A stretch of DNA of 64,000 nucleotides from Rhodocyclaceae bacterium (GCA_044230495.1 JBGARB010000004.1:438-64437), one strand, 5' to 3'. Positions 1-53,818 are shown, numbered from the stretch's first letter. Made by a program: numbers and translations. The notes: a model not told the origin generated them from the sequence alone.

Positions 1-1399
1 TGCCGGCCAGCAGGACGACATCGTCAGCCGCCGCCGCGCCGATCGCGCGCATGATCGCGGCGCCGCGTTCGGCATCGACAACGCGTTCGGCGCCCGCCGT
101 CATGCCGGCGACGATCTGATCGATGATCGCCTGCGGCGGCTCGCTGCGCGGATTGTCGCTGGTCACCCAGCTCACGTCGGCGAGCCGCTCGGCGATGGCG
201 CCCATCAAGGGCCGCTTGCCCGGATCGCGGTCACCGCCGCAGCCGAACACGCAATGCAGCCGGCCGCCGCGTGCCCGCGCCGTCTCGCGCAGGCTGCCCA
301 GCACCTGCTCCAGCGCGTCCGGCGTATGGGCGTAGTCGACGACCACCAAGGGTTCGTTGGCGCCGCCCAGCGCCTGCATGCGCCCGGGTGGAGGCGCAAG
401 GTGTGTCAGCGCGCCGGCGATGTCGCCAAGCGCATGACCATGCGCGCGCAGCACGCCGATGACCACCAGCAGGTTGGCGACGTTGAAGCGGCCGACCACG
501 GGAGATGCAAAGCAGACCCCGTCGACCTTGAAGGCGACGCCGCCGGCGCTGAAATCGAGCTCTCGTGCCAGCAACGTCCTGCCGCGCCACGCGGCGGGGA
601 TGCTGGCCGCGTCGAGTGCGCAGGCAAAACCCTCGACGGCGCGCGGCAGCCCGAGGGCCAACGTGCGACCAAACGCGTCATCGACGTTGATGACGGCAGC
701 AGGCAGCGCCGGCCAGGCGAACAGCCGCGCCTTGGCCTCGGCATAGGTCGCCATGTCGCCGTGGTAGTCCAGATGGTCGCGCGTGAGGTTGGTAAAGGCG
801 GCGACGGCGAAACGCGCCGCGCACACGCGGCCCTGCGCGATGCCGATCGACGAAACCTCCATCGCGCAGGCCGGCAGGCCGCGGGCGACGAAGCCGGCCA
901 GCGTTTCATGCACCGCCACGGCGTCGGGCGTGGTGTTCGGCGATTCCGCCAGCTCGCCGGGCAGGCCGCTGCCCAGTGTCCCGATGACCGCGCAGGGCGT
1001 GCCTAGCCGGCCCATGGCCTGCGCGATCCATTGCGTCACCGAGGTCTTGCCGTTGGTGCCGGTGACGCCGGCGAGCCAGAGTTGCGCACTGGGATGCCCA
1101 TACACCACGTCGGCAAGGCCGCCGACGCGGTGCGCCAGCCCCTTGACGACGACGATCGGCGCGCGTTTTGCGCCAGGCGCCGTGTCACCACCACTGTAGT
1201 TTGGCGGCGTGCCGTCCTCGGCGACGACGGCGGCGGCGCCGCGCGCCAGCGCATCGGCGATGAACGCGCGGCCATCGACGCGCGCACCGCGCAGCGCGAC
1301 GAAGATGTCGCCGGGCTGCACGCGGCGAGAATCGGCACACAGCCTGCGCGCGACGACGCCGTGGGCGGCGAGCGCATCGAGGATCGCCTGCGGATTCAC
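1..1399 (-). CDS. murE: UDP-N-acetylmuramoyl-L-alanyl-D-glutamate--2,6-diaminopimelate ligase (MurE); 3' end runs off the window
   Basis: My own minus-strand translation from GTG at 1399 reads VNPQAILDAL...LAGVTGTNGKTS (Mur ligase P-loop)...VTSDNPRSEP. It stays open to position 1, so it is absent from the ORF track. It lies directly downstream of ftsI, as in dcw clusters. The start codon choice is uncertain. Confidence 0.85.
   Translation of the reverse strand, partial: MNPQAILDALAAHGVVARRLCADSRRVQPGDIFVALRGARVDGRAFIADALARGAAAVVAEDGTPPNYSGGDTAPGAKRAPIVVVKGLAHRVGGLADVVYGHPSAQLWLAGVTGTNGKTSVTQWIAQAMGRLGTPCAVIGTLGSGLPGELAESPNTTPDAVAVHETLAGFVARGLPACAMEVSSIGIAQGRVCAARFAVAAFTNLTRDHLDYHGDMATYAEAKARLFAWPALPAAVINVDDAFGRTLALGLPRAVEGFACALDAASIPAAWRGRTLLARELDFSAGGVAFKVDGVCFASPVVGRFNVANLLVVIGVLRAHGHALGDIAGALTHLAPPPGRMQALGGANEPLVVVDYAHTPDALEQVLGSLRETARARGGRLHCVFGCGGDRDPGKRPLMGAIAERLADVSWVTSDNPRSEPPQAIIDQIVAGMTAGAERVVDAERGAAIMRAIGAAAADDVVLLAG
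1178..1202 (-). repeat. 25-bp dispersed repeat, copy 1 (AAACTACAGTGGTGGTGACACGGCG)
   Basis: Read directly. It lies inside murE in the sense orientation and is translated NYSGGDTA, in the variable region before the P-loop. Confidence 0.9.
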
Positions 1400-7175: not shown

Positions 7176-7628
7176 ATGGACGAGTCCGCGTTCCGGCACG
7201 CCAAAGGCGAAATCAACCGCCTGCCCTGCGTCTTCGAACGCGCGCTGCTCGCCCGCCACGGTGTCTGCGAATGCGCCGTGCGGCACCAGATCGGCGAGCG
7301 CGAGACGATCGCCTGTGCGCAACCCGTGGCGCGCGCCGCCTGCGGTGAACTGCTGAACCTGCTGCGCGAAAAGTCCGCCTTCGCGCTGGGCATCGCCGAC
7401 GCCCGTCGTATCCTGCCTCATGCCATGGTGATGAAGATCCAATGCGGCGGCCTCGACGGCCTGCGCGACGCCGTGGCACCCGATGCCGCCGCGCCGAACG
7501 TGCACGCGCTGGTGCGCGCCGGCATCGACGCGCACGGCAGCCTCGCCGCGCTGCCGTTCGAACGCATCGTGCGCGGCATCGCGGCCTGGAAGGGTCGCCG
7601 TCGCCACGGCACGCGGAGCGCAACATGA
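7176..7628 (+). CDS. hypothetical protein (150 aa, several Cys)
   Basis: The ORF starts 8 nt after the previous gene. Its stop overlaps the next start (ATGA at 7625-7628), suggesting translational coupling. No family recognised. Confidence 0.5.
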   Translation: MDESAFRHAKGEINRLPCVFERALLARHGVCECAVRHQIGERETIACAQPVARAACGELLNLLREKSAFALGIADARRILPHAMVMKIQCGGLDGLRDAVAPDAAAPNVHALVRAGIDAHGSLAALPFERIVRGIAAWKGRRRHGTRSAT

Positions 7629-8665
7629 TCGCCGGCCTCGGCACGCTGATCGACACCGTGCAACGCAATTGCGACATCGCCGACGCGCGCCACGCTCGCG
7701 ACGTGACCATGTGCACCTACCTGCTCGGCATGCGCGAGCACTACCGTTGGGAGCATGCGCTGCCGTTCGGCGCCTCGCCGCCGCGTCAGGAAGTCGGTCG
7801 CTGGATCAGCGAGCGCGAAATCGGCTGGGCGCAACTGGACGAGGCCGAGTACGCCCCGCTCGCACTGGGTGACGAAAGCGTCGCGCCCTTCGACGCGCCG
7901 CGCGCCAACGTGCTGCTCAACCGCCACGGCCTCGTCTATGGCGCCGGCATCGGCCGCTTCGGCAAGCCGCATTTCTTCCTTGGCCGGCTGGCCCGCACCG
8001 AACGACGCGACGGCGCGCAGTTGCTCGTCTGCGAATGCGAATACGCGCGCGACATCAGCGCCATTCCGGCGGCTTTGCAGGGCGAGACCATCCTCGTGCG
8101 CCGCGATGCCCTGCGCCAATGGTTGTGGCAGAAGGTCGAGGGCTGGGCGGTGAAGCGCCAGCCGGGCGCACTGGCGCGCGCGCTGGCCGCCTACGACTAC
8201 GATGCCGATCCGCACGCGGCGCTCGAACGCCTCGTCGAGAGCGAGACCGAAACCCTGATCCTGCACGAGACCGGCGAGCTGGCCGCCGGCCGCCTGCTCG
8301 GTCCGGCCTGGCACGAGCGCCTCGCGGCGCTGCGCCATCGCCACGCCGAACTGCTGCTGCGCGCCGTGCGCGACCTGCTCGCCGATTGCCTGGTGACCCT
8401 GCCCGCGCTCGTCGCGCAGCGTCGCGATGCCTCGCTGCATCTGTGGTTCGCCGATTTCGACGGCCTGCGCCGCGAGCTGGCGCCCGGCCTCGCCGCCGCC
8501 TACGGCCAGGCAAACTACAGTGGTGGCGGGACGGCGGTTGACGCCTTGCAGCACGCCATCGCCGCCGGCGCCGCACACTGGCTGCACGTCGCGCGCACGC
8601 TGCTCGATGCCGACGACCACGCGCTGGTGGCGCTGGCGCAGGCGCCGCAATCCCTCACGCTATAG
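7625..8665 (+). CDS. conserved hypothetical protein (346 aa)
   Basis: Taken from ORF 7442..8665, trimmed to MIAGLGTLIDTVQRNCDIAD (ATG 7625). It contains one in-frame copy of the 25-bp repeat (…[16 protein letters not shown]…). Confidence 0.55.
   Translation: MIAGLGTLIDTVQRNCDIADARHARDVTMCTYLLGMREHYRWEHALPFGASPPRQEVGRWISEREIGWAQLDEAEYAPLALGDESVAPFDAPRANVLLNRHGLVYGAGIGRFGKPHFFLGRLARTERRDGAQLLVCECEYARDISAIPAALQGETILVRRDALRQWLWQKVEGWAVKRQPGALARALAAYDYDADPHAALERLVESETETLILHETGELAAGRLLGPAWHERLAALRHRHAELLLRAVRDLLADCLVTLPALVAQRRDASLHLWFADFDGLRRELAPGLAAAYGQANYSGGGTAVDALQHAIAAGAAHWLHVARTLLDADDHALVALAQAPQSLTL
8512..8536 (+). repeat. 25-bp dispersed repeat, copy 2 (AAACTACAGTGGTGGCGGGACGGCG)
   Basis: Lies inside CDS 7625..8665 in the sense orientation, translated NYSGGGTA. 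Confidence 0.9.
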
Positions 8666-11987: not shown

Positions 11988-13066
11988 TGGACGCCCTGCT
12001 TGCCGGGTTCCGTGAGCGCATCCGCGCCGGCACGCCGCTGGTCGTCCGCGGCGGCGGCAGCAAGGATTTCTACGGCGGCGCAGCGACGGGCAACGTGCTC
12101 GACGTGCGCGCCTGGCAGGGCATCGCCAACTACGAACCGAGCGAGCTGGTCATCACCGCCCGCGCCGGCACGCCGCTGGCCGAGGTCGAGTCGCGGCTCG
12201 CCGCGCAAGGCCAGTGCCTCGCCTTCGAGCCGCCGCGCTTCGGCGCCGGTGGCACCATCGGCGGCATGGTGGCTTGCGGGCTCTCCGGTCCGCGGCGCAT
12301 GAGCGTGGGCGCGCTGCGCGATTTCGTGCTCGGCGTCACGATCATGGACGGCAACGGCCGCGTGCTGAAGTTCGGCGGCGAAGTAATGAAGAACGTCGCC
12401 GGCTTCGATGTCTCGCGCCTGATGGCCGGCAGCATGGGCACGCTGGGCGTGCTGCTGGACGTTTCGGTGAAGGTGCTGCCGGTGCCCGTGGCCGACGCCA
12501 CGGTGGTCCTGGCGATGAACGAAGCGGACGCGCTGCAGGCCGTCAATCAGTGGGCCGGCCAGCCCCTGCCGTTGGCCGCGACGTGCTGGTCGCCCGAGCA
12601 GGGCGGCATGCTCGCCGTGCGCCTGGCCGGCGCCCGCGCGGCGGTCGAGGCGGCGGCGCGCAAGATCGGTGGCGAGCCGCCCTCGCCTGAAGGCGCAAAC
12701 TACAGTGGTGGTGGCACGGCGCTGTGGGCGTCGCTGCGCGATCACACGCACGCATTCTTCGCCGGTGACGCGCCGCTGTGGCGGCTTGCCGTGCCATCGA
12801 CCGCGCCTGCACTCGATCTGGGGCCGACGCTGGTCGAATGGGGCGGCGGCCAGCGCTGGTTGCGCGGCGAATTCGACGCCCGGTCGCTGCGCGAAACCGT
12901 CGCCAAGGCGGGCGGCCACGCGACGCTGTTTCGCGGCGGCGACAAGTCGGTGGGCGTCTTCACGCCGACGGTACCCGCGATCGCCGCCTTGCAGCAGCGG
13001 CTGCGCGCCGCATTCGATCCGCATGGCGTGTTCAACGCGGGTCGTTTGTACCCGGCTGTGCCATGA
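11987..13066 (+). CDS. glcE: glycolate oxidase FAD-binding subunit GlcE
   Basis: The start, MDALLAGFRERIRAGTPLVVRGGGSKDFYG (ATG 11987), overlaps the glcD stop. It carries an in-frame copy of the 25-bp repeat (…[17 protein letters not shown]…). Confidence 0.85.
   Translation: MDALLAGFRERIRAGTPLVVRGGGSKDFYGGAATGNVLDVRAWQGIANYEPSELVITARAGTPLAEVESRLAAQGQCLAFEPPRFGAGGTIGGMVACGLSGPRRMSVGALRDFVLGVTIMDGNGRVLKFGGEVMKNVAGFDVSRLMAGSMGTLGVLLDVSVKVLPVPVADATVVLAMNEADALQAVNQWAGQPLPLAATCWSPEQGGMLAVRLAGARAAVEAAARKIGGEPPSPEGANYSGGGTALWASLRDHTHAFFAGDAPLWRLAVPSTAPALDLGPTLVEWGGGQRWLRGEFDARSLRETVAKAGGHATLFRGGDKSVGVFTPTVPAIAALQQRLRAAFDPHGVFNAGRLYPAVP
12697..12721 (+). repeat. 25-bp dispersed repeat, copy 3 (AAACTACAGTGGTGGTGGCACGGCG)
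   Basis: Lies inside glcE in the sense orientation, translated NYSGGGTA. Confidence 0.9.
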
Positions 13067-17524: not shown

Positions 17525-17525
17525 C

Positions 17526-18964: not shown

Positions 18965-18989
18965 AAACTACAGTGGTGGTGGGACGGCG
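18965..18989 (+). repeat. 25-bp dispersed repeat, copy 4 (AAACTACAGTGGTGGTGGGACGGCG)
   Basis: Lies at a convergent junction, 6 nt after the stop at 18958. Its reverse strand supplies …AVPPPL-TAG, the end of the TerC-family gene. A CGGCGGCG/CGCCGCCG hairpin follows (18991-19009). Confidence 0.9.
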
Positions 18990-21619: not shown

Positions 21620-21644
21620 CGCCGTGTCACCACCACTGTAGTTT
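21620..21644 (-). repeat. 25-bp dispersed repeat, copy 5 (AAACTACAGTGGTGGTGACACGGCG)
   Basis: Fills most of the 34-nt convergent spacer between the GGDEF gene stop (21619) and the uvrA stop (21654). Confidence 0.9.
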
Positions 21645-21653: not shown

Positions 21654-24521
<2,868 letters not shown>

Positions 24522-24560: not shown

Positions 24561-25253
24561 CTAGCGCTCGATCGGCGTAATGGTCAGACTGTCCGGCCCG
24601 GAGCGCACGTGGATCAGCAGTTCCGCGCGCACGGCACGCCGTCCGATCCGGGCCGGGAAGTAGCGGGCGCCTGCGAAGGCCGCGGCGGCCTCCGCTGACA
24701 GCGCCGCTTCGATGGCCGACAGCACGACGACGGAGTCGACGCTGCCGCCGTCGCTGATGCGGACTGAAAGCAGCGTTTCCGACACAGGATAGAGACGCCC
24801 CGCCTCTTCACGCAGTACCGGTGCCTGCAGCACTGGCCGCTGTGTCAGCTCCGACAACCGGTGATAGTGCGGCAACGCGGCCGACGCCAGGTCAGCCAGT
24901 GCCACGCGATCGGTTCCCATGGCATCCGTCAGTCCATCTGTCGGTCGCACTGCCGGTATCGGCGGCGGATGGAACGAAACAGCAGGCCTTGGCGACACTT
25001 CCGTCCCCGACATGATGGATTCATGTGTTGCCTGGTCGCTGCGCGCAAGGGCAACGGCGTCCCTTACTTCCGACACGGCGCTACCTGCTTGCCCTTCCGG
25101 TCGGGACGCCAGGCTGCCGACCACGAACGCCCACGATTGGGCGGGGCCGGCCTCCCGGGCCAGCCCCGCCGGTGTCACCGGAACATAGAGCAGCGAACCG
25201 TGCAGCAACAACGAGCCAAGCAATGCCCCCGCTAGTTCGTGATCTCGCGCCAT
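24561..25253 (-). CDS. hypothetical protein with a weak TonB C-terminal-like domain; last gene of the pilus operon
   Basis: Taken from ORF 24561..25703, trimmed to MARDHELAGALLGSLLLHG (ATG 25253), which overlaps the pilY1 stop by 22 nt. It has an N-terminal TM helix, a Pro-rich middle and a C-terminal ~80 aa that resembles TonB_C by eye only. Confidence 0.4.
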   Translation of the reverse strand: MARDHELAGALLGSLLLHGSLLYVPVTPAGLAREAGPAQSWAFVVGSLASRPEGQAGSAVSEVRDAVALARSDQATHESIMSGTEVSPRPAVSFHPPPIPAVRPTDGLTDAMGTDRVALADLASAALPHYHRLSELTQRPVLQAPVLREEAGRLYPVSETLLSVRISDGGSVDSVVVLSAIEAALSAEAAAAFAGARYFPARIGRRAVRAELLIHVRSGPDSLTITPIER

Positions 25254-28200: not shown

Positions 28201-29911
28201 CCACGCTGCAGGTGCGCGCCGTACCGGCCGTGTAGTTCGTCGGTCCGGGGCTTTGCGCCACCGGCGTGCAGCTGCTGGTCGTGCCCTGATCGGTATAGGC
28301 CGTGTATTGGCATTGGCGGGCGAGCGCCCACACCGCGCCGTTGGCCGTGCTCGTCTGCTCGTTCACCACGGTGCAGGAGGACTGGTTCGACCAGGATGAC
28401 CAGGATGCGGCATAGCGGCAGTCACGCCGGCTACTTCCGCTCGCATCGATCGTGCAGCTTGACGTGCCGCCGCTGCCGGTGGCCGCCCATCCAGTCCAGG
28501 TGGCACCGCTGTTGGCCGAGGTTCGCGTTTCCAGTGTCCGCTGACGACGCTGCAGATAGGACTCGTAGTAATGCTGCTGGCCGTCATTGCTTTGCAATTG
28601 GTAGATCGTCTTCGTGATCGACCCACTCTGCTGCTGCCATTGCAGCGTGCGCTGCCGGTCAACCGTCACCGTGCAGGCGGCGACCTGATAGTGATTCAGC
28701 TTGTCGATCGTCGTGCGCACTTGCGATGCGCCGTCGAACATCGGGCGACCGCTGATCAGCAGACCTGTCCCTTGCGCGTCTGTCGCCGTGACGTTGCTGT
28801 CGTAGGTCTGCGTATCCATCGAACTGCCATCCAGCGTCGAACCGCCGCCGCCGTTCCAGTATCCGTCAGTGGTCAGGATGGTGAAATTTTGCTGGCAGGA
28901 ATACTGCACCGGATCGTCCGCTGCCGACGGAATCATGCCGGCGTTGATGCCGTCGTTCTTGCCGGCGAAGTAACGGCCGACGCGCGACAGTGCCGGGCGC
29001 AGCGGCGTCGAGCCGCTGGTCGAGGCGCCGTAAAGCTTGTCGAACCAGCTGCGCTTCTGTTCGCCGACATTGACCCCTTCAAAAGGCGCCGGCTTGAGGA
29101 ACTTGCTGGCGTTGATGGTTGCTGGATCGCCGGTCATCGGATTGATGGTGATGAAACCTACGCGGTAACGGTTGTTGATGCCGTCGAAGGCCTCGCCGAC
29201 GGCTGCCTTCATCATCATCAGGCGCTTGCGGTAATAGCTGTACCAGTTGGCGAAATTGGTGCGCTCGTCCGTTCCACCGGGGCCGGATGTGGCTGAAACC
29301 ACCCTCTTTGTCCAGGAGCCGCCGCTCGGGTCGGCGATTGTGTTGGGCCAGGACCATGGCTGTTCGGTTGTGTTTTGTGACGCATCGACCTTGATCGTGC
29401 AGGACGATGACAGCGGTGACAGCTTCGTGATCGCAGACACGCCGTCGAAGGCCGTGCCGCCAAACGACTGCTTCGAATGCACGTAGTAGTAGGCGGGCTG
29501 AGGAGAGCTGTCGAACGGATCCCAACGGCCCTGATGCGCAAAGGACGTGGACAGGTCATTTGTGCACCCCGGTGAACTGCTGTAGCCGTTGGTGCAGGCT
29601 GCGGTAAATGTACGACTCGCCTTGCGCGTGCCATCGGCGTTCTTGGGTGGCAGGTAGGTAAGGTTCGGGTTGTAATAGACGGTGTTGCATTCCCAGTTGC
29701 GTGCGCCAACGTCGTTCAGTCGATCATCCAGCGCGTCCGGCATGAACATCCAGTCCATCGACCCGGAATCGTCGAGCACGAACATCACGTTCGGCTTGAC
29801 GTCGGCAGAGGTTACGGAAACCAGCGGCTGGTCGGAAAGATCGGCCAGCGCGGCGTAGGCCACGGGCGCTGCCATGGTCAGCAGCGCACAGGCGAGAAGG
29901 CGTCGTTTCAT
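25232..29911 (-). CDS. pilY1: type IV pilus tip-associated adhesin PilY1 (vWA domain + Cys-rich insert + C-terminal PilY1/PilC propeller), 1559 aa
   Basis: Trimmed to MKRRLLACALLTMAAPVAYA (signal peptide, ATG 29911). A vWA MIDAS motif (VMFVLDDSGSMDW) is present. The long C-terminal region is typical of PilY1, and the gene follows pilX as in fimU-pilVWXY1E operons. Confidence 0.85.
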   Translation of the reverse strand: MKRRLLACALLTMAAPVAYAALADLSDQPLVSVTSADVKPNVMFVLDDSGSMDWMFMPDALDDRLNDVGARNWECNTVYYNPNLTYLPPKNADGTRKASRTFTAACTNGYSSSPGCTNDLSTSFAHQGRWDPFDSSPQPAYYYVHSKQSFGGTAFDGVSAITKLSPLSSSCTIKVDASQNTTEQPWSWPNTIADPSGGSWTKRVVSATSGPGGTDERTNFANWYSYYRKRLMMMKAAVGEAFDGINNRYRVGFITINPMTGDPATINASKFLKPAPFEGVNVGEQKRSWFDKLYGASTSGSTPLRPALSRVGRYFAGKNDGINAGMIPSAADDPVQYSCQQNFTILTTDGYWNGGGGSTLDGSSMDTQTYDSNVTATDAQGTGLLISGRPMFDGASQVRTTIDKLNHYQVAACTVTVDRQRTLQWQQQSGSITKTIYQLQSNDGQQHYYESYLQRRQRTLETRTSANSGATWTGWAATGSGGTSSCTIDASGSSRRDCRYAASWSSWSNQSSCTVVNEQTSTANGAVWALARQCQYTAYTDQGTTSSCTPVAQSPGPTNYTAGTARTCSVVWNGWVNASSCTVDNSGTNRRDCREITVSTEPNAPSCTESNAGGVRVTCDIISGGPWTNTTGPCVATPTNFCQSIVIQDWTNVASCTPSGPDGSGVEVICDPGSGSDPGNRIQYRTQTTTTTQNTSGGVDVGSPTVTNSYSAWTNMAAPEGTCMPTASGTPTAPTPNPRRPVDPEPPLPTAPCTAWPCVSYGALTAGANGTLADVAQYYYVNDLRPTLENNVPAAGSDVEADRATWQHMSTYTLGLGLSGTIAYAQNYKQQQTAADGNFGAIREGTLNWPAPSADSPSALDDLWHAAVNGRGQYFSASDPESVASSLRTALSGLNARVASAAAAATSNLEPVAGDNFAYLAKYKTQSWYGDIEAHAIALADGVVDGENVVEGQVLDASVWTAATQLNNKVGGACDTRTIKLFRSGATDNMVDFKWNTYACDGSKNPTGAAVTTLDATEQGYFGSTQVSSLGQYPDMGDGSGTTYNQRAAAAGYRMVNFIRGQRGNEVNSNADAWDAASSTQFYRKRGDTDLDTVLGDIVNAQPLFVRKPFALYEDTGYAAFKSANASRASMVYVASNDGMLHAFNGNDGSEAWAFMPRAVLPELHKLTNRDYATAHRFLVDGSPVAGDVFDGTNWRTIVVGGLNKGGKSYYALDVTDPAAPKALWEFTDANLGYSYGNPLIGKLADGTWAVFVTSGVNNADGKGHLYVLNAVTGALLSDIVTCEGSAGTPSNLMKIAGWSAADPIINNTVSHIYGADMAGNVWRFDVNDSIAPTGLEATKLITVTDAGGTPQPITVKPLVSLVGTEIFVYVGTGRYLGSTDMTSTQVQSVYGIKDPMTEPASACAPVVVNGRTDLIAQTVTQTGSGASQIRTVTSCTNSTPNGWYVNLPDSKERVNVDMQIQLGTLIVASNVPDPQACNVGGYSWLNYFDLRNGCGIADGKVGQRLADALAVGINVIRLPSGKTKVIATLSDAETITLEPPIAIGNPEGRRLTWREITN

Positions 29912-29924
29912 GATCGCTCCTGGA

Positions 29925-30581
29925 TCAGAACATCGTGGTTTGCGTGAAGGCGACCGCGTTGCGCGGCCCGCGAACGCGGGTGGTGATGCGGTAATAGGGC
30001 CGCATCGTCGTCGAAAGCTGTTGCGTGCCGTAGGTGATCGTCCCATGGCCACCGCTGCCACCGCCCGTCTGCAGCGCCAGCACGCAGCTTTGGCCCGATG
30101 CATCGATCGAACCAATGCGATCGCACAGCCGATGCACGACATAGCGAACGCTATTGCCGGCGGCATCGAGATCATCGTCACCGTCACCATCGGTGTCCGT
30201 CACCAGAATGCTCTGGTTGGTACCTTCCCAGTCGTAGGTGAAGGGATCGAAACGCGACGGTGTGGCCGAAGCATTGCAATTGGTCGCACTGGCCACATCA
30301 GTCTGATCGTTGTAGCAGTGGGCGGGGAAATAGCCCGGAAAGGCCGCAAAGAGGGCCGATCCGGTCTGGTTCATCAGCCAGTCGCGCGCCACTTCCTGGC
30401 CGCTGTCGGCACCGGCGATGGCGGAATTGGTAAACGTGAGGTTGCCGGAAATCATCGCGCTGGCCGCCAGCTTGCGGAACATCGCGACGCCGGAGAGCAT
30501 CATCGCGCCGAGGATGATGATGGCGATGATCAGTGAAACGCCCTGCTGGGCGCGCCGGCCGGTCAATGATCGTGCGCTCAT
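29925..30581 (-). CDS. pilX: type IV pilus minor pilin PilX
   Basis: Trimmed to MSARSLTGRRAQQGVSLIIAIIILGAMMLSGVAMF (PilX N-terminal type). The start overlaps the pilW stop. Confidence 0.7.
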   Translation of the reverse strand: MSARSLTGRRAQQGVSLIIAIIILGAMMLSGVAMFRKLAASAMISGNLTFTNSAIAGADSGQEVARDWLMNQTGSALFAAFPGYFPAHCYNDQTDVASATNCNASATPSRFDPFTYDWEGTNQSILVTDTDGDGDDDLDAAGNSVRYVVHRLCDRIGSIDASGQSCVLALQTGGGSGGHGTITYGTQQLSTTMRPYYRITTRVRGPRNAVAFTQTTMF

Positions 30582-31678
30582 GCTGCGACATTCCTCCAGA
30601 TCATGTTGCGCAGGGGAACCATGACTTCCTGCACCTGATACTTGTAGTGCCGCCAGTTGTTGATGGCGGCGCCACCGGCGCCCGAATCGGCCGTGCCGTC
30701 GACATTGCGCATCGTGAAGGCGCCGCCCGCCCACCCTGGCGCGGTGGTCGTCACCGGCGCGTTGGCGCGCTCCTGCCCGCGAATGAGGATGGCAAAGCGG
30801 ATCAGGCGCAACTGCTCCCAAGCGGCGGCATTGGCGGGCGTCGTCGCCGTCCACGTGTCGGCGGCTGTATCACCGTCCGTATCGAGGCCGTACTCGGCCT
30901 GCAGGTCGACCACGTTATCCACCACATCGCCCCATGCGGGCGGCGCGGCATGATCGTTGAGCAGATTGGCCCGTACCAAGCGGTTGTTGTCAATCGCCCA
31001 CGCATTCAGGCGCGGCGAGAACTGCCAATCATTGGCGGGCATCACGGGTGCTTTGCCCAGGTTATGCAGAACGGCATTCGATGCCGGAAAGGTCAGAGTG
31101 ACGGCCGTTGAGCCGCTGAACCGGCCAAACCCTGCCGCATGAAGAATCTGCGGCGCCGCATCCGCGCCTTGCGCGACTGTCGCGGCACTGACATGCATCA
31201 ACCGGCAACCCGACGCCGATGCGAGTACGACAAGGTCGTTCTGCTCGATGCCGCCGCGCGCATCAAGCAGCGTATCGCCGGCCGCCGATGACTGCACGAT
31301 GTAAGTAGACGAAGGCGCCTGCGAACTGCCGTAAAGCACATGGATCTGGTCCGGTGCGCCTCCAGCGCCGTCGATGATCCGGACGGGCGCGAGCGGGAAG
31401 GTAAAAGCCGTACCGTTGTCGCTCGCGGCGACGCTGCAGCCGAAATAGGTGGTGCCGGCTATCGGTTCGCCGGTGATGCCCATGCCGCCATTGCGGATGT
31501 CGCGTTCGAGCTGGAAGGCTGCGACAGTGCCCGATACCTGCGCCTCGCCGCCAGACGACAAGGCGCGCTTGTTGCGATCGAAATCTTCTTGGGTACGCAG
31601 GATCATGAACATGCCGATGATGCCGATGAAGGCACCGATCAACACCTCGAGAATGGTGAAACCGCCTTGCCGCTTCAT
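30578..31678 (-). CDS. pilW: type IV pilus minor pilin PilW
   Basis: MKRQGGFTILEVLIGAFIG prepilin-type N-terminus; 366 aa; lies between pilV and pilX. Confidence 0.8.
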   Translation of the reverse strand: MKRQGGFTILEVLIGAFIGIIGMFMILRTQEDFDRNKRALSSGGEAQVSGTVAAFQLERDIRNGGMGITGEPIAGTTYFGCSVAASDNGTAFTFPLAPVRIIDGAGGAPDQIHVLYGSSQAPSSTYIVQSSAAGDTLLDARGGIEQNDLVVLASASGCRLMHVSAATVAQGADAAPQILHAAGFGRFSGSTAVTLTFPASNAVLHNLGKAPVMPANDWQFSPRLNAWAIDNNRLVRANLLNDHAAPPAWGDVVDNVVDLQAEYGLDTDGDTAADTWTATTPANAAAWEQLRLIRFAILIRGQERANAPVTTTAPGWAGGAFTMRNVDGTADSGAGGAAINNWRHYKYQVQEVMVPLRNMIWRNVAA

Positions 31679-32157
31679 GTCACGGTCCCCATCAGCACGT
31701 GCCGGCGCGGCACGGACAATCCTGGCTGCTGCCAGCAGACGACGATGCGCACCTGATTGACGCGCGATGGCGCCACCGCCGGGATCACGCGTACCTGACC
31801 GCTGGCTTGCGGCAGCGCCTGCGCAGCCTGCAGGTCGGCAACCCAGGTGGTGATGATCGCGTTGGCGGAATCCGCACCGCTGAACGCGCAGTCGGTGTCG
31901 CCACCCGTCGGTTGATGGTCGAAGGACGCGAGGTCGGCGTTGTAATTCACCATCGTGTCGCGACGGATATTGGCCTGGATTTCGGAGAACAGCCGGTTGG
32001 CGAAGTTGTTGGCTTCGACGCGATAGCCTGTATCGACATTCGTATTGATGGCCGCGGCCTGCAGGCCGATGAGGCCGAGGATGCCAAACGAAAAAAGGAC
32101 CAGTGCGATCAGCGCCTCGATGATCATCGAGCCTTGTTGAGACCTCATGATTCTCAT
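31675..32157 (-). CDS. pilV: type IV pilus minor pilin PilV
   Basis: MRIMRSQQGSMIIEALIALVLFSFGILG prepilin-like N-terminus; 160 aa; 4-nt overlaps on both sides. Confidence 0.8.
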   Translation of the reverse strand: MRIMRSQQGSMIIEALIALVLFSFGILGLIGLQAAAINTNVDTGYRVEANNFANRLFSEIQANIRRDTMVNYNADLASFDHQPTGGDTDCAFSGADSANAIITTWVADLQAAQALPQASGQVRVIPAVAPSRVNQVRIVVCWQQPGLSVPRRHVLMGTVT

Positions 32158-32744
32158 GGCGGGCAGGACCTCGGATCGTTCGCGTTCTCTGCGGTGGTTT
32201 TCGGGTCGCAGAGCTTCACCCGGCCGGTCGCCGTAACGGCCACTTGCAGGCAGCGCACCTTGCCGCCGGCGCCCTCATGGACACAACTGCCGTGCAGCGG
32301 GTAGGAAAGGTTGAAACGGGCTACGGTGACCGGAGTCGCCAGGATGCTGAGATTCGTGCCGCCCAGTGGCGTGAAAGGCACCACGCCGCTGTTGCTGCCG
32401 AGCACGACGCGTGACTGTCCGTCCTCGGCAAGTTTCAGTCCGGCGACGTATTCGCTGCGATCAGCGGGGCGCACCATCCAGCCTTCCGCGGCGGTATCGG
32501 GATCCGCCGTCGCGACGTCTTCGGGCGACGCCACGGTCTGCACCAGTTCGACCACGACATTGCGCGACGCGGCTTCGGCCTTGGCGCGCATCATGTCGGC
32601 GACTAGATTTTCGGCCGCCGCACGCACACGGCTGTTGACGAGGAAATCCTGAAAATACGGAATCGCGATCGCCATCAGGATGCCCATCAGCGCCACTGCG
32701 ACCATCATCTCGACCAGCGAGAACCCACGCTGCAAGGCACGCAT
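32154..32744 (-). CDS. fimT: GspH/FimT-family minor pilin
   Basis: Trimmed to MRALQRGFSLVEMMVAVALMGILMAIAIP (ATG 32744, sharing one base with the pilE stop codon). FimT versus FimU cannot be separated by eye. Confidence 0.7.
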   Translation of the reverse strand: MRALQRGFSLVEMMVAVALMGILMAIAIPYFQDFLVNSRVRAAAENLVADMMRAKAEAASRNVVVELVQTVASPEDVATADPDTAAEGWMVRPADRSEYVAGLKLAEDGQSRVVLGSNSGVVPFTPLGGTNLSILATPVTVARFNLSYPLHGSCVHEGAGGKVRCLQVAVTATGRVKLCDPKTTAENANDPRSCPP

Positions 32745-33217
32745 CAGCAGCCTCCCGCCTTGTTCTTGGCCCAGCAATTGCCGGTGGGTGCCGTCCAGCC
32801 GGCCGGCACGGAGTCTGTCGCGCGGATGTTGCGCTCGTCGATCGAATACACGAGGCCCGCCAGATCGCCCGAACCGCTTGCCGTGATGACGAACGTCGAG
32901 CCCGTCAGCGTCGGGCAGGCAAAGGTGAAACCGCCCGGCGTCGGCTCGGGGAGCGGCGCCTGCGTGCCGGGCTGGCATGCCCCGGCGTAGGTGCGGAAGT
33001 CCTGGAACTGGCGCTCCATGCGGATACGCATTTCGGACAACGTATTGATCGCCTCAGAGATCTTGCCGCGCCGCACGTATTCGACGTAGTTCGGATAGAC
33101 GATGCCGGCCAGAATGCCGATGATCGTCAGCACGACCATCAGTTCGATCAGCGAAAAGCCGCCCTCGCCGCCACGTTGGCGCATCGGTTGCTCGGCAGTG
33201 AAGATTGCAACGGACAT
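32744..33217 (-). CDS. pilE: type IV pilin PilE-like
   Basis: …GG|FSLIELMVVLTIIGILAGIVYPNYVEYVRRGKISEA is a class III signal plus a pilin N-terminal helix. The start is either ATG 33217 (good AAAGGGGA RBS) or ATG 33184. A C-terminal Cys pair is present. Confidence 0.8.
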   Translation of the reverse strand: MSVAIFTAEQPMRQRGGEGGFSLIELMVVLTIIGILAGIVYPNYVEYVRRGKISEAINTLSEMRIRMERQFQDFRTYAGACQPGTQAPLPEPTPGGFTFACPTLTGSTFVITASGSGDLAGLVYSIDERNIRATDSVPAGWTAPTGNCWAKNKAGGC

Positions 33218-33313: not shown

Positions 33314-33338
33314 AAACTACAGTGGTGGTGACACGGCG
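33314..33338 (+). repeat. 25-bp dispersed repeat, copy 6 (AAACTACAGTGGTGGTGACACGGCG)
   Basis: Lies in the divergent pilE / sensor-kinase spacer. Its 3' CGGCGC forms the base of an imperfect hairpin, CGGCGC-TT-GGC-cgcaaa-GCC-GCGCCG. Confidence 0.9.
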
Positions 33339-35299: not shown

Positions 35300-35324
35300 C
35301 GCCGTTCCGCCGCCACTGTCGTTT
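35300..35324 (-). repeat. 25-bp dispersed repeat, degenerate copy 7 (AAACGACAGTGGCGGCGGAACGGCG, 22/25 match)
   Basis: Lies immediately upstream of, and overlapping, the TTG start of the SulP-Usp gene. Confidence 0.6.
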
Positions 35325-37904: not shown

Positions 37905-37929
37905 AAACTACAGTGGTGGCAGGACGGCG
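37905..37929 (+). repeat. 25-bp dispersed repeat, copy 8 (AAACTACAGTGGTGGCAGGACGGCG)
   Basis: Lies 5 nt after the SulP-Usp stop. It is the first of two direct copies in the 337-nt convergent spacer. Confidence 0.9.
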
Positions 37930-38100: not shown

Positions 38101-38125
38101 AAACTACAGTGGTGGCGGGACGGCG
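38101..38125 (+). repeat. 25-bp dispersed repeat, copy 9 (AAACTACAGTGGTGGCGGGACGGCG)
   Basis: The second direct copy, 196 nt after copy 8 and 111 nt before the stop of the small hydrogenase-like subunit. Confidence 0.9.
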
Positions 38126-38236
38126 GTCGAGTCGCCCCAAGCCTGAGTCGCCACCACGCATCCCGCTCGCGGGCGCTGCGCCCTCACTGCGTGGGGCCCC
38201 CTCCGCTGCGAGCGGTCGCTATGGCAACACGGCGCT

Positions 38237-40314: not shown

Positions 40315-40320
40315 GATCTG

Positions 40321-41775: not shown

Positions 41776-42443
41776 CACTCGTCTTTCAGGCGTTCCATGT
41801 GGTGGATGTCGAGGCTGTCGAACTGGTCGCGGATCTGGAAGAAGAACACGCCGAGAATGATGACGCCGACCAGCACGTCGAGCGCGATGCCCAGCTCGAC
41901 CACCATCGGCATGCCGTAGGTTGCGCTGGTCGCGGCAAGGAAGAGCCCGTTTTCCATGGCCAGAAAGCCGACCACCTGGGTGATCGCCTTGCGCCGCGTG
42001 ATCATCATCAGGAAGGCCAGCATCACGGTCGCCAGCGCGATGCCCAGTGTGCCGCGCGAGACGGTCGACGAGAACTCGGCGATCGGCAGCGCGACGTTGA
42101 AGGCAATGATGACGAGCCCGAGGCCGACCAGCAGCGTGGTGGTGATGTTGATCATCGGCTCGACTTCGCGCTTGATCTTCAGTTGCGTCATCAGCCGGTG
42201 CAGGATCCACGGCAGCAGCGCGGCCTTGAGCACCAGCGTCAGCGCCGCCGAGTAGTAAAGGTGCGTCTGCCCGGTGGTCACGGCCACCACCAGCGTGGAC
42301 AGGAACAGCACCAGTCCCTGCACGGCGAACAGGTCGATCAGGCCGCGCACGCTGCGCTGCGCGAGCATGGCGAAGGCGAGCAGCAGGATCACTGCGGCGA
42401 ACAGGTTGATGAGCTGGGCCGACAGCGGCAGCGCGGTGGTCAT
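41775..42443 (-). CDS. HyfE/HycP-like small membrane subunit (NuoK-related)
   Basis: Trimmed to MTTALPLSAQLINLFAAVILL (ATG 42443, ATGA overlap); 222 aa; multi-TM. Confidence 0.8.
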   Translation of the reverse strand: MTTALPLSAQLINLFAAVILLLAFAMLAQRSVRGLIDLFAVQGLVLFLSTLVVAVTTGQTHLYYSAALTLVLKAALLPWILHRLMTQLKIKREVEPMINITTTLLVGLGLVIIAFNVALPIAEFSSTVSRGTLGIALATVMLAFLMMITRRKAITQVVGFLAMENGLFLAATSATYGMPMVVELGIALDVLVGVIILGVFFFQIRDQFDSLDIHHMERLKDE

Positions 42444-45474: not shown

Positions 45475-47628
45475 TCAGCGGGCCTCGTTGCCGCCCCAGC
45501 GCTGGGGCATCAGCGGACACGACAGCGGTGCAAGCGCCGTCCCGCCACCACTGTAGTTTGCGTAGATCGCCTCCAGCGCCTGATCGTAGGTGGAGAAGAT
45601 CCTGTCCTCGCCCAGCCAGGCCAGCAGGCCCGTGGCGCGCATGACGTCCAGCACCTGCTTCTTGAGGCCCGAAAACACCACATCGACGCCGCCCTCGCGC
45701 AAGCGGCGGATGACATGGTGCATGACTTCCTCACCCGAGGCATCCAGCTCGTTGATGCCGTCGCCGACGATCAGCAGCGTGCGCGCCTTCGGGTTGCCGG
45801 CCACCGCCTCGAGGATCGCATCCTCGAAGTACGACACGTTGGCGAAATACAGCCGACCGTCGAAGCGCACGGCGGTCACGATCTCCGAGGTCGGCAGGTT
45901 GTGCACCTTGACGTCGCGCAAGGTGCCGTCGGCATGCCGGCCGAGAATCGCCACGCGCGGGCGCATGGTGCGGAAAAGGTACAGCGCGATGGCCACCGCG
46001 GCGCCGACGAGGATGCCGGTATCGAGGTGCGGCGCAAAGGCCAGCGTGGCGGCAAAGGTGATGATCGCCGCGATGCCGTCGTGTCTGCTGGCCTGCCACG
46101 CGTGACGGATGGCACCGAAATTCACCAGCCCGACAACGGCCATGATGATGACCGCCGCCAGCACCGCCTGCGGCAGGTGGTAGAGCAGCGGCGTCAGGAA
46201 CAGCAGCGTGAGCAGCACGAACAAGCCGGTGAATACCGCCGAGAGTCCGCTCGCCGCGCCGGCGTTGAGATTCACCGCCGAGCGCGAGAACGACCCCGAT
46301 ACCGGAAAACCCTGTGTCAGCGCACTGGCCAGATTGGCCAGCCCCTGCCCCAGCAACTCCTGGTTCGGATCGATGCGTTGACGGGTCTTGGCGGCCATTG
46401 CCTTGGCGATCGAGATCGCTTCCATGAACGCCACCAGCGAGATCACCACCGCCGCCGACAGCAGCGCGCGCAGGCTGTCCCAACTGATCGCAGGCAGGGC
46501 CACGGTGGGCAAGCCTTCGGGAACCTTGCCGACGACTTCGCCACCGCCCACCAGCCGAACCTCGCCCCCCGGTGCGCCCGGCGCGCGCGCAATGCGCCAG
46601 CGATGACCGTCCGTCCCTTGTGCGGGTGCCGCCGCGGCATCGACGAACCGGTCCGCAGCGCCCGCCGCACCGGGAAGGCGCGCCAACGACATGCTGCGCA
46701 GCGCCCGGTTGCGCACGCGATTCTCGGCCTCGCGATCTTTCAGTTGCAGCCGCAGCACGTCGATTTCGTAGTTGAGCGTCAGCGCCGCATGCGCGCCACC
46801 GGTACCCGCCTTGCGTGCCGCGGCCAGCGCCGCGCCCCCGCTCGCGATGCGCGCATTCAACTCCTCGATCTTCTGCTGCGCCGAGGCGTATTCGGCGAGC
46901 AGCATCACCGCCTCGGGCGCCTCGATCTGCGCCAGCGATACCGCCGCATTGCGCTCGAAGCCGACGGACCAACTGACCACGGTCGCGATGGCCACGGCCA
47001 CCAGCACGCCGGGCGCGCGCGGCGCAAGCCGCCGCAAGACCGCCATGACGGCGATCGCGCCGACGCCCATCGCCAGCGTCGGCCAGTGCGTGTCGCCGAT
47101 CTGCAGCAGCACGTTCCAGACATCGGCGACAAAGTGCTCGGTGCGCGGCATCGGCACGCCGATGAGCTTGTTCACCTGCGACAGCCCGATGATGATCGCC
47201 GCCGCATTGGTGAAGCCGACGATCACCGGATGCGACAGGAAATTGACCACCACGCCCAGTCGGAAGACGCCGAGCACGAGCTGGAAGACGCCGACCAGCA
47301 GCGCCAGCCCGATCGCCAGCGCGACGTAGGCCTCGGTGCCGCCGGCGGCCAGCGGCGCCAGCGCCGACGCCGTGAGCAGCGAGGCCACGGCGACCGGCCC
47401 GGTGGCGAGCTGGCTGGAGGAGCCCCACAACGCGCCGATCACCGCCGGCAGGAAGCCGGCATACAGCCCGTAGTACGGCGGCACGCCCGCCAGTTGGGCG
47501 TAGGCCATCGATTGCGGCACGAGCACCAGCGCCACCGTCAGGCCGGCGACGAAGTCCGCCCGCATCGAGCCGGCATTCGGCGCCGGCCAGCGCAAAAAGG
47601 GCAACCATGCGGAGAGTGCGGATTTCAT
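45475..47628 (-). CDS. SulP-family anion transporter with a ~140-aa insertion inside the TM core, plus STAS
   Basis: A 717-aa ORF. SulP core motifs (…GVPPYYGLYAGFLPAVIGAL…) are present. A coiled/low-complexity insert lies between …VGFERN and GKVPEGLP…. A STAS domain is present. The C-terminal tail reads through a copy of the 25-bp repeat (…[17 protein letters not shown]…). Confidence 0.85.
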   Translation of the reverse strand: MKSALSAWLPFLRWPAPNAGSMRADFVAGLTVALVLVPQSMAYAQLAGVPPYYGLYAGFLPAVIGALWGSSSQLATGPVAVASLLTASALAPLAAGGTEAYVALAIGLALLVGVFQLVLGVFRLGVVVNFLSHPVIVGFTNAAAIIIGLSQVNKLIGVPMPRTEHFVADVWNVLLQIGDTHWPTLAMGVGAIAVMAVLRRLAPRAPGVLVAVAIATVVSWSVGFERNAAVSLAQIEAPEAVMLLAEYASAQQKIEELNARIASGGAALAAARKAGTGGAHAALTLNYEIDVLRLQLKDREAENRVRNRALRSMSLARLPGAAGAADRFVDAAAAPAQGTDGHRWRIARAPGAPGGEVRLVGGGEVVGKVPEGLPTVALPAISWDSLRALLSAAVVISLVAFMEAISIAKAMAAKTRQRIDPNQELLGQGLANLASALTQGFPVSGSFSRSAVNLNAGAASGLSAVFTGLFVLLTLLFLTPLLYHLPQAVLAAVIIMAVVGLVNFGAIRHAWQASRHDGIAAIITFAATLAFAPHLDTGILVGAAVAIALYLFRTMRPRVAILGRHADGTLRDVKVHNLPTSEIVTAVRFDGRLYFANVSYFEDAILEAVAGNPKARTLLIVGDGINELDASGEEVMHHVIRRLREGGVDVVFSGLKKQVLDVMRATGLLAWLGEDRIFSTYDQALEAIYANYSGGGTALAPLSCPLMPQRWGGNEAR
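45535..45559 (-). repeat. 25-bp dispersed repeat, copy 10 (AAACTACAGTGGTGGCGGGACGGCG)
   Basis: Lies inside the 3' tail of SulP gene 45475..47628 in the sense orientation, translated NYSGGGTA. Confidence 0.9.
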
Positions 47629-51611: not shown

Positions 51612-51636
51612 CGCCGTGCCGCCACCACTGTAGTTT
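51612..51636 (-). repeat. 25-bp dispersed repeat, copy 11 (AAACTACAGTGGTGGCGGCACGGCG)
   Basis: Lies in the 35-nt convergent spacer between the adenosyltransferase stop (51602) and the cNMP-binding gene stop (51638). Confidence 0.9.
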
Positions 51637-51637
51637 G

Positions 51638-52210: not shown

Positions 52211-53818
52211 CTACTTCGTGCAGGATTCGCCAGGAAAGTAGCGGTCGCAGAAATAGCAGCCGCGCTGCGGCAGCCATGCCGGCAGCTGGTAGTAGCGCCG
52301 ACGCACCTCGCGCAGCACTTCTTCGCGATAGCGCGCGTAATCGAAGCCCTCGCCGCGGATCAGCCAGAAAGTCGCTCCGCGTACCTCGATCGTCTGCACG
52401 CGCGAACGGCGGAAATACGGCTGGTAGTAGCCGGCCTCGGGCGCCGTCTTGCGCAGGATCAGGAGGTTGCGGCCGTCGAGCGAGCGTACATCCGTCATGA
52501 TGTCGTCGTGCCGCGCATGCGAGGAGCCCAGGCCGAAGACCATCACGTAACGCTTCAGGTTCCACGCCAGCGTGATCGCGTTCGAATAACCGTCCATCGC
52601 CGGCACCCAGTTCTTCTGCGCATCGGCAAGGTCCGCCGCCAGCGCCGCCGCAATGCCGGCGCCATCGACGGTCAGCACGGCGCTCGGGTAGATGCGCTGT
52701 TTGCGCCATGTCTCCAGCGGCAACTGCGCCATGACGAACGCGGCGACGACGTGCAGCACGGCGAAGCCGACGAAGAACACGCCGAGCCGGCGCAAGGTCG
52801 GCAGCGGCACGCGCAGCGCCACCCAGATCAGCACGAAGGGCACGAACGACAGCAGCCAGTGCAGGCCGATGGTCTTCGGCCCGGAGAGCAGCCCGAACAG
52901 CAGCAACGGCACGCCGGCCAGCACGACCAATGAAACGACAGTGGTGGCGGGACGGCGCATGACATCGACCGCGTCGGCCGGATCGGCTGGCGGGCCGGCC
53001 GGCAGCGGATCGAGCGTGCGGCGCACGGCCAGCCAGGCTGCCGGCGGCGAAAAGACGTAGAGCAGCGTTGCCGCGTAGAGCAGCGGCGTTACCCACGAGA
53101 AGGCCGCGTCGGCGTTGCGATTGACGAAATTGAACATGTAGTTCGGCCAGCAATGGCCGGCGTTCCACCAGGCCATCAGCGCCAGCGCCGGCACGCACAT
53201 CGCATACGTGACGAACAACCCCGCCCAGATGCCGCGGCGGCGCAGGCGCGCCGTATCGACGAGATAGGCAAAGCCCAGCAAGGCGACGAAATATTTCGAC
53301 AGCACGGCGCCGGCCAGCAGTACACCACACAAGACGAACCAGCCCCAGCCATCGCCGGGACGCCGCTGCACCGCACGCAGCCAGGCCAGACCCGAAAGCA
53401 CGCTGAAATAGACCAGCGGCGTGTCGGTGGTGACGAAGACGTTCCAGACGTTGGCCGGCGCCAGCAGCACCAGCAGGAACAGCGCATTGCGCCGCGCCGG
53501 CTCGATGCCGGGCCAGAGCCGTGGCGCGGCCCAGGCGATGGCCAGCGCCAGCAGCAGCGGCTGCAGGATCGTCGCCACGCGCAGCAGCAGCGCCGAATCG
53601 CCCAGCGCGGAAAGCGCTGCGAGCCACCAGCCGATCATCGGCGGATGATCGTAATAGCCCCAGTCCGGCGCAAAGCCCCACCAAATGAAATATGCCTCGT
53701 CGCCGGTGACCGGCGTGACCCAGCCCAGCCAGAAACGGAAGACCAGCGAGGCGACGACGATCGCCGCCAGGACCGGCACATCGAGCAGGCCGGCGCGGGC
53801 CGGCGGGATGTGCGCCAT
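52211..53818 (-). CDS. ArnT/PMT-like (GT39/GT83) membrane glycosyltransferase with a C-terminal soluble domain
   Basis: A 535-aa ORF with an N-terminal …GDEAYFIWWG…YYDHPPM… motif and about 11 TM helices. It carries a reverse-oriented copy of the 25-bp repeat in a loop (…VMRRPATTVVSLV…). Confidence 0.75.
   Translation of the reverse strand: MAHIPPARAGLLDVPVLAAIVVASLVFRFWLGWVTPVTGDEAYFIWWGFAPDWGYYDHPPMIGWWLAALSALGDSALLLRVATILQPLLLALAIAWAAPRLWPGIEPARRNALFLLVLLAPANVWNVFVTTDTPLVYFSVLSGLAWLRAVQRRPGDGWGWFVLCGVLLAGAVLSKYFVALLGFAYLVDTARLRRRGIWAGLFVTYAMCVPALALMAWWNAGHCWPNYMFNFVNRNADAAFSWVTPLLYAATLLYVFSPPAAWLAVRRTLDPLPAGPPADPADAVDVMRRPATTVVSLVVLAGVPLLLFGLLSGPKTIGLHWLLSFVPFVLIWVALRVPLPTLRRLGVFFVGFAVLHVVAAFVMAQLPLETWRKQRIYPSAVLTVDGAGIAAALAADLADAQKNWVPAMDGYSNAITLAWNLKRYVMVFGLGSSHARHDDIMTDVRSLDGRNLLILRKTAPEAGYYQPYFRRSRVQTIEVRGATFWLIRGEGFDYARYREEVLREVRRRYYQLPAWLPQRGCYFCDRYFPGESCTK
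52933..52957 (+). repeat. 25-bp dispersed repeat, copy 12 (AAACGACAGTGGTGGCGGGACGGCG, 24/25 match)
   Basis: Lies inside the GT39-like gene in antisense orientation, translated RRPATTVVS in a predicted loop. The T-to-G change falls in the TAG triplet of the repeat's reverse strand, which lies in a frame other than the one this gene reads. Confidence 0.85.

Follow-up and report, generated by a model that had tools for sequence, protein, structure and literature searches.

DNA uptake sequences (DUS) along with uptake signal sequences (USS), collectively termed DUES, have been described only for Neisseriaceae and Pasteurellaceae (bioRxiv 10.1101/2025.10.24.684340), and they are the main model of molecular drive reshaping whole genomes and proteomes. 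The DUS of Neisseriaceae are 10-12 bp in length, occur as dialects, and have the minor pilin ComP as receptor; the dialects follow phylogeny and ComP (PMC3630211). The USS of Pasteurellaceae are composed of a 9-bp core plus phased AT tracts (~29 bp) and fall into Hin and Apl types; they display an 'anomalously strong consensus', in-place origin as judged by a gap test, and long site stability (Redfield et al. 2006, PMC1626085). Uptake sequences further exhibit orientation and gene-terminus bias (PMC2346458) as well as proteome effects and reading-frame bias (PMC2817400), and DUES favor frames of low biosynthetic cost, about half of them being located in terminator regions (bioRxiv 10.1101/2025.10.24.684340). 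The 64,000-nt stretch of DNA analyzed here (Rhodocyclaceae bacterium, GCA_044230495.1, JBGARB010000004.1:438-64437; hereafter the window) harbored multiple copies of a 25-bp bipartite motif, AAACTACAGTGGTGG-NNNN-ACGGCG. The original prediction for this DNA had recognized copies read in frame inside conserved genes, and took them for either tolerated insertion of a short mobile sequence or selection for a DNA motif at the expense of the local protein sequence. What was established herein is the anatomy of the motif, its distribution, and the pattern of its evolution: the motif is old and has been retained at corresponding gene positions in related genera, in versions specific to each lineage, which is the hallmark of DNA uptake sequences. 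With modest confidence, the repeat is interpreted as an uptake-sequence-like, genome-wide 'self' motif of this putative function, kept by molecular drive.

A 25-mer scan of the window yielded 12 matches at ≤3 mismatches versus none in dinucleotide-preserving shuffles, and a 13th, degenerate copy was also recognized (starts and strands in Table 1), corresponding to one copy per ~5 kb; the predicted repeat copies, including those giving NYSGG(G/D)TA in frame, were thereby borne out. Motif positions 1-15 and 20-25 were near-invariant (21 constrained bases), while positions 16-19 varied freely, being TGAC, CGGG, TGGC, TGGG, CAGG, or CGGC among the copies. Scoring of every window position against the 21 constrained bases gave 11 sites at 21/21, one at 20/21 (52933), one at 19/21 (35300), and none at 16-18/21, with the lower scores as expected at random. 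The motif was strand-asymmetric (G-rich on one strand) and present in both orientations (8 plus and 5 minus), no flank sequence common to the window copies was seen, and additional same-species sequence (~20 kb) contained ~5 further copies. A scan of genome contigs with the motif gave at least one locus among the matches listed (contig L001 of a Rhodocyclaceae metagenome-assembled genome [MAG]), that of metagenome contigs gave one locus, and a plasmid BLAST search gave partial chance matches only. Several other candidates were discarded: (i) matches in two phage contigs (37-39% GC, 18/21) were judged to be chance; (ii) ideas of a G-quadruplex, a tRNA 3' end, a sigma-54 promoter, and an insertion sequence excision footprint were dropped, because the required bases were not kept in every variant; and (iii) structures of the repetitive extragenic palindrome (REP)/RAYT type and of the terminator type were rejected, because seven intergenic copies shared no conserved hairpin.

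The window lineage is an isolated, uncultured one, since its nearest GlcE, MurE, and DUF6866 homologues (from Sulfuritalea, Sterolibacteriaceae, and Rhodocyclales metagenome assemblies) were only 53-65% identical. L001 belonged to a different species (its TrpF and the window-species TrpF shared 77% identity) and shared with L037 (window species) and L039 a copy at the truA 3' end, where the motif constituted the last truA codons, ending in D or V and the stop. Compared to L037, L001 was identical at 24/25 motif positions, with the sole change in the variable block, while the upstream 120 nt were only 56% identical and third codon positions were identical at 17/40 (saturated); the probability of all 21 fixed positions being identical was <6e-4 at ≥30% divergence, and a neutral relic is contradicted by this between-species conservation. 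L038, a relative from a JGI metagenome (TrpF 66% identical), contained no window-type copy; within its 13 kb, CAAGTCAGCGCTGGT-NNN-ACGGCG was present three times (0 expected). Sulfuritalea hydrogenivorans, a cultured organism with a complete genome, carried the version AGTCGGCGCTGGC-NNN-ACGGCG (search word AGTCGGCGCTGGCNNNACGGCG) as four perfect copies in 20.6 kb (L040, AP012547.1:1327008-1347652; 0 expected), which were located in leuC, the truA tail, folC (antisense), and lpxH, two in each orientation. The L038 and Sulfuritalea versions were ≤3 mismatches apart, and the window dialect was never found in the same loci as these two.

The versions of these relatives matched those of the window species in both gene position and reading frame: (i) QVSAGETA and KVGAGDTA in the TruA tail; (ii) RRTTSADL and RRAASADS, versus RRPATTAV in the window species, from the antisense copy in FolC; and (iii) QVSAGNTA and TVGAGGTA in LpxH. 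The MurE site encoded KVGAGGTA, RVGAGDTP, QVGAGETA, and others in other Rhodocyclales, its DNA being AAAGTCGGCGCTGGCGGGACGGCC in MAG JAOAGM010000216.1. Shared sites in truA, folC, lpxH, and murE linked the window lineage and L001 with L038, S. hydrogenivorans, and MAG JAOAGM01, with the versions differing by lineage, and the copies at these fixed positions had therefore changed together toward the consensus of each lineage. Orthologues with the same residues in genomes lacking the DNA repeat had been named as the sign of a conserved protein motif; related residues were indeed found (KVGAGGTA, QVSAGETA), but the genomes encoding them carried their own version of the DNA repeat, also in antisense and intergenic positions, and so the residues do not represent a peptide motif. 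Of the two original explanations, selection for a DNA motif overriding protein sequence is supported, and the lineage-specific DNA versions at the same sites in other genera extend it to a multi-genus family of motif dialects. The searchable literature gave no description of such multi-genus motif dialects and no mention of the Sulfuritalea sequence. In GlcE homologues P0005 and P0011 (ENA metagenomes, 63% identical), QVGAG(N/G)TA was located in the same linker, ~9 residues earlier than NYSGGGTA, and replaced the widely conserved KLGGE; the same GlcE linker has therefore gained a motif version independently at a slightly different place.

Gene calls and Pfam families were taken from same-species contigs, and a pilin operon from L023 was mapped to the window. 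Four window copies were sense in one common frame (murE, DUF6866 gene, glcE, and SulP tail), and re-translation confirmed not only the NYSGG(G/D)TA peptides predicted for them but also RRPATTVVS on the antisense strand in the GT39-like gene and, at 18965, an antisense strand supplying the last six codons and TAG stop of the TerC gene (protein end AVPPPL, with the stop lying within the copy). The location of copies inside conserved genes held as far as the reading frame was concerned, which was kept, but the SulP and TerC copies lay in C-terminal tails outside the conserved domains. The forward strand had been described as free of stop codons in any frame, which was incorrect: TGA was present at positions 16-18 (frame 1) in four TGAC-variant copies. 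Nine coding copies were available when the window ones were combined with those of the same species in the DUF3299 N-terminus, the TruA tail, and folC (antisense): seven were sense with NYSGGxTA and two were antisense with RRPATT(V/A)V, only two of the five open frames being used (P = 0.0016 for at least 7/9 in one frame). The stop-giving frame was used only at the TerC terminus, and the residues encoded by the motif were small (G, A, S, and T).

The copies also crowded at gene ends. Five of the nine coding copies fell in the terminal 15% of the gene; seven window copies were intergenic, five of them in gaps between convergent genes, and the 34- and 35-nt convergent gaps were the motif almost entirely. 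Six of these seven, and likewise one more copy just outside the window, either began ≤30 nt from a stop codon or fell between two convergent genes. The predicted placement of the GlcE copy in a linker agreed with an AlphaFold2 model, in which residues 228-243 were coil, residues 235-242 had a predicted local distance difference test (pLDDT) score <50, and motif residues 238-245 would largely lie in the linker between two helices.

The recurrence of one peptide in unrelated proteins might point to a functional protein-level feature, NYSGGxTA (or xVGAGxTA), such as an N-X-S glycosylation sequon, and N-Y-S does fit N-X-S/T. Against this, 7/13 window copies were intergenic while others were antisense or stop-supplying, the third-position bases of AGT and GGT in the motif codons were invariant despite being rare in a genome with ~88% G+C at third codon positions, and the sequon was missing from the other versions (KVGAGxTA, QVSAGxTA). 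The intergenic and antisense copies effectively refuted this explanation, which retains practically no probability; it is the motif that accounts for the odd conserved peptides NYSGGxTA and KVGAGxTA in housekeeping proteins. An RNA-level signal read in sense, such as a 3'-untranslated or in-message element for mRNA stability, processing, or protein binding, was also considered: most copies with assessable orientation were sense to their own or preceding gene (~8 versus 2), and many began 1-27 nt past a stop codon. However, the Rfam scan of the window gave 0 matches, the seven intergenic copies folded no better than shuffles (z from -1.3 to +0.3, with no significant hairpin), and the antisense folC copies were conserved across genera, while the sense bias inside genes is explained because only some frames give tolerable peptides; an RNA signal is accordingly regarded as highly improbable.

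Within-species variation was assessed in ~40 contigs from ENA and Logan assemblies (95.7-100% identity) plus 90% protein clusters. Every motif copy was present in all these contigs, protein-cluster lengths were constant, and no presence/absence polymorphism of copies was found; single-base changes inside copies across strains were A8T, A8C, G9A, and one in the variable block. Target-site duplications, terminal inverted repeats, and hairpins were absent from motif edges and copies, and the motif-bearing genes were intact, which disposes of the pseudogene possibility. Alignments of FolC with Escherichia coli 1W78 and of LpxH with Pseudomonas aeruginosa 5B49 were ungapped at the motif, and the seven closest MurE homologues with a related peptide were only ~1 residue longer than those without it. 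GlcE was ~6 residues longer at the motif than 28 orthologues and the DUF6866 protein ~3 aa longer than its orthologues, both in length-variable linkers, and no series of partial sites was seen. The notion of the eight residues as an indel found some support in the length excess of GlcE and the DUF6866 protein only and none in MurE, and most old sites appear to have originated in place without gaps.

A 24-27-nt unit pasted by some enzyme, with survivors only in harmless places and frames, would still account for several of these observations: a perfect-or-absent distribution is typical of copying elements (as noted for USS, PMC1626085), GlcE and the DUF6866 protein were longer exactly at the motif, copies and relics clustered at 37.9-38.2 kb with a 46-nt strain indel starting exactly from a motif edge, and there was no partial-site series from which copies could grow. 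Such a very short mobile or copied element is nevertheless deemed improbable, because transposon anatomy was missing, no transposase was present among the window gene calls, no copy varied in presence between strains, orthologous positions were occupied in different genera by lineage versions with ungapped alignments, and the between-species conservation of the motif far exceeded that of its flanks. Fixation in all strains, cross-genus orthology, ungapped alignments, and the missing anatomy contradict a recently active mobile element, and the originally suggested tolerated insertion of a short mobile sequence is likewise rejected.

The motif combined a sharp consensus with occurrence in both orientations, restriction to tolerated frames, small encoded residues, crowding at gene ends, long-lived orthologous sites, and lineage dialects. 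This set of features matches the published ones of DNA uptake sequences, and biased uptake plus recombination is therefore proposed for the motif; we infer uptake bias, a receptor, and competence for these organisms. Under this proposal, a surface receptor of the type IV pilus/competence machinery would preferentially bind motif-bearing DNA, and such DNA from dead relatives would be taken up and, through subsequent homologous recombination, recombined more often, so that alleles closer to the motif would spread by this drive. Perfect copies would pile up where tolerated (immediately beyond stop codons, in loops and tails of proteins, and only in frames giving harmless peptides) and remain at fixed gene positions over very long periods; a shift in receptor preference would shift all copies together and generate lineage dialects. 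The candidate receptor is a minor pilin of the ComP_DUS family encoded in the window (PF16732, E = 2.9e-9, 38.1 bits with a cut-off of 27.3), the first gene of a minor-pilin operon, and a motif copy precedes it 130 nt upstream. As evidence for a receptor role the match is weak, and the AlphaFold2 model made from the single pilin sequence had a pLDDT of 51.6, which was too poor for a fold search.

Several observations weigh against uptake. The pilin gave no sequence-search match to Neisseria ComP structures, and PF16732 may also match ordinary PilE-type minor pilins. Within the species, ~6 single-nucleotide events in 325 motif bases versus ~21 in 1560 flank bases made the motif not measurably more conserved than its flanks, and one altered allele (A8T) was the majority form, being carried at the 51612 copy by most other strains. 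The 19-21 specified bases amount to about twice the length of a DUS or USS core, and a 21-base word is not easily grown from chance near-matches; the window showed no excess of partial or one-off sites, which does not readily fit a stepwise origin of new sites by point mutation. The GlcE (+6 aa) and DUF6866 (+3 aa) excesses fit seeding of new sites by copying, and together with the copy/relic cluster and the 46-nt indel at a motif edge they leave room for local-copy seeding. The copies were single, instead of the terminator-forming inverted pairs of Neisseria, and a literature search on uptake sequences in Rhodocyclales/Rhodocyclaceae and on the three motif strings returned nothing relevant. 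Lastly, owing to the Chi-like centre TGGTGG/GCTGG, an interpretation as a recombination signal retains some probability.

This last point belongs to a broader explanation, namely, that the motif is a site array for an intracellular chromosomal protein, e.g., a Chi-like RecBCD/AddAB hotspot, a polar signal like the FtsK-orienting KOPS, or a nucleoid-organizing site, with site selection and co-evolution leading to dialects. The E. coli Chi consensus is GCTGGTGG, its density there is close to one per ~5 kb, and Chi sites are 5-8 nt long and strongly skewed to the leading strand. The motif resembles Chi in being a G-rich asymmetric word of nearly this density that differs between lineages, and a Chi-like centre was present in all three versions (AGTGGTGG in the window, GCTGGTG/A in L038, and GCTGGCG in Sulfuritalea); between-species conservation and dialects fit any co-evolving protein-site pair. 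However, no strand skew was evident (8:5 for the window copies, 2:2 for those of Sulfuritalea, both small numbers; the cumulative GC skew was flat across the window), Chi and KOPS are 8-mers, neither 19-21 fixed bases nor a site-by-site selection converting ~7 positions at every orthologous site has a known precedent, and the crowding at gene ends plus strong frame bias is the published pattern of uptake sequences. An intracellular site array is for these reasons considered rather unlikely, and biased uptake is retained as the favored reading.

Table 1. Motif copies, possible relics, and minor-pilin genes in the window (the copy at 35300 is the 13th; the 12 other copies are the scan matches)
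Feature	Coordinates	Strand	Context
Motif copy, TGAC variant	1178..1202	-	Inside murE, sense, NYSGGDTA (DGTPP-NYSGGDTA-PGAKR)
Motif copy	8512..8536	+	Inside DUF6866 gene (7625-8665), sense, NYSGGGTA
Motif copy	12697..12721	+	Inside glcE (11987-13066), sense, NYSGGGTA, linker
Motif copy	18965..18989	+	Convergent genes; starts 6 nt past the stop of a 216-aa gene; antisense strand gives the last 6 TerC codons and TAG
Motif copy	21620..21644	-	Fills 34-nt gap between convergent uvrA and GGDEF gene
Rest of type IV pilus minor-pilin operon	25232..32744	-	GspH/FimT-like, PilV-like, PilW, PilX-like, PilY1
Type IV minor pilin, candidate DNA receptor	32744..33184	-	146 aa, Pfam ComP_DUS (PF16732); putative role
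Motif copy	33314..33338	+	Between divergent minor-pilin operon and histidine kinase gene
Degenerate motif copy (19/21)	35300..35324	-	Overlaps SulP-Usp gene start
Motif copy	37905..37929	+	5 nt past SulP-Usp gene stop, convergent intergenic region
Motif copy	38101..38125	+	Second copy in the same intergenic region as 37905; its 3' edge coincides exactly with the start of a 46-nt strain indel
Possible partial inverted motif relic (GTCGCCACCACG), low confidence	38147..38158	-	Inside the 46-nt strain-variable piece
Possible relic of motif 3' half (CTATGGCAACACGGCG; other strains ...TGGCGGGACGGCG), low confidence	38219..38234	+	
Motif copy	45535..45559	-	C-terminal tail of SulP (45475-47628), sense, NYSGGGTA
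Motif copy	51612..51636	-	Fills 35-nt convergent gap; 1 nt past the stop of a cyclic nucleotide monophosphate-binding protein gene
Motif copy, T5G	52933..52957	+	Antisense inside PMT_2/GT39-like gene, RRPATTVV
Motif copy	59604..59628	+	27 nt past DUF1348 gene stop, convergent with phoX

Strain-level differences were seen at individual motif sites. The 33314 copy displayed TGAC or TGGC in its variable block between strains, with A8C in one strain. The 46-nt segment at 38126-38171 was missing in five other contigs spanning the site (L023, L024, and L026-L028), and the intergenic DNA around it was far more diverged than the motif copies there. The DUF3299 locus, ~9 kb beyond the right end of the window, existed as two haplotypes (L031:15433-15542 and L033:11922-16287), in one of which the FtsX/MacB and DUF3299 genes were separated by a 4.3-kb segment with ZnuABC that the other lacked; both harbored a motif copy 21-25 nt past the FtsX stop with unrelated flanks, and in the short haplotype the motif supplied DUF3299 codons 4-12, within the signal peptide (MNTANYSRGGTA...). 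The minor-pilin operon (window 24600-33200, minus strand) encoded a 1559-aa PilY1, had a GC content of 0.63-0.65 (lower than its surroundings), and contained no motif copy across 8.7 kb.

Three further regions of the window were recorded: (i) at ~10300-10305, 100 nt were missing relative to three same-species contigs (L002-L004) inside a DUF4147/MOFRL (glycerate kinase-like) gene, and as this loss is not a multiple of three the window copy is frameshifted, which reflects a genuine pseudogene of this strain or else a mistake in the assembly; (ii) 38237-45450 (minus strand), with an unusually high AT skew of 0.18-0.19, was a complex-I-like or hydrogenase-4/Ech-type cluster (Oxidored_q6, Complex1_30/49kDa, two Proton_antipo_M, and NADHdh) between two SulP-family transporter genes, one of these transporters being fused to a tandem Usp domain; and (iii) within uvrA, at 21746-23120, direct repeats 164 nt and 86 nt long (families D4 and D10) recurred ~1029 nt apart, which probably reflects the duplicated ABC ATPase modules of UvrA rather than a mobile repeat.

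Were the uptake interpretation true, it would reveal self-specific natural transformation in widespread environmental denitrifiers and sulfur oxidizers, indicate the prevalence of self-specific gene exchange beyond host-associated bacteria, and provide an independent system in free-living Betaproteobacteria, in which a motif of double length, with an unconstrained spacer and distinct dialects, would allow ideas on motif origin to be tested and give insight into receptor-motif co-evolution. It is directly testable, because the carrier S. hydrogenivorans is cultured and fully sequenced. The dialects are moreover usable as lineage barcodes in metagenome binning and for spotting recently acquired DNA. 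It is conceivable, if rather tentative, that the Sterolibacteriaceae/Rhodocyclales relatives (Sulfuritalea plus uncultured lineages) constitute a third group with true uptake sequences, defined by an unusually long, 22-25-bp bipartite word in at least three dialects and read by a type IV pilus minor pilin.

Rickettsia palindromic elements, described by Ogata and colleagues in 2000, reportedly reside in frame inside housekeeping genes, in variable surface regions of the proteins. Like these and other repeats such as miniature inverted-repeat transposable elements and REP, the motif was interspersed and entered housekeeping genes with the frame unbroken; unlike the Rickettsia elements, which are 100-150 bp, palindromic, and true insertions, it was 25 bp and strand-asymmetric, lacked a hairpin, terminal inverted repeats, and target-site duplications, and was not an insertion at the old sites. 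Compared to USS, the motif had an unrelated sequence in a GC-rich host, fewer one-off copies (2 versus 11 perfect), and gaps at two tested sites (GlcE and DUF6866), but the two shared (i) a composite, longer motif with free positions between constrained blocks, a strong consensus, and persistent sites (PMC1626085), (ii) in-place origin by the gap test (PMC1626085), which is probable here from the ungapped FolC, LpxH, and MurE alignments, and (iii) reading-frame and gene-terminus biases (PMC2346458, PMC2817400). Compared to DUS, it comprised 19-21 fixed bases in two blocks around a free 3-4-nt spacer instead of 10-12 contiguous bases (9-12 contiguous core bases across DUS and USS), occurred about once per 5 kb instead of once per 1 kb and as single copies instead of terminator-forming inverted pairs, and did not keep the CTG/CAG core in its Sulfuritalea version. 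The motif and DUS shared the character of an over-represented, lineage-specific word found in both orientations and in genic as well as intergenic positions, with concentration at gene 3' ends and dialects (PMC3630211), and both belong to Betaproteobacteria hosts with a ComP_DUS-family minor pilin. The invariant block on the other strand of the motif, CGCCGT, overlapped the GCCGT of GCCGTCTGAA, which may be coincidence or could reflect common ancestry with the neisserial DUS-ComP system.

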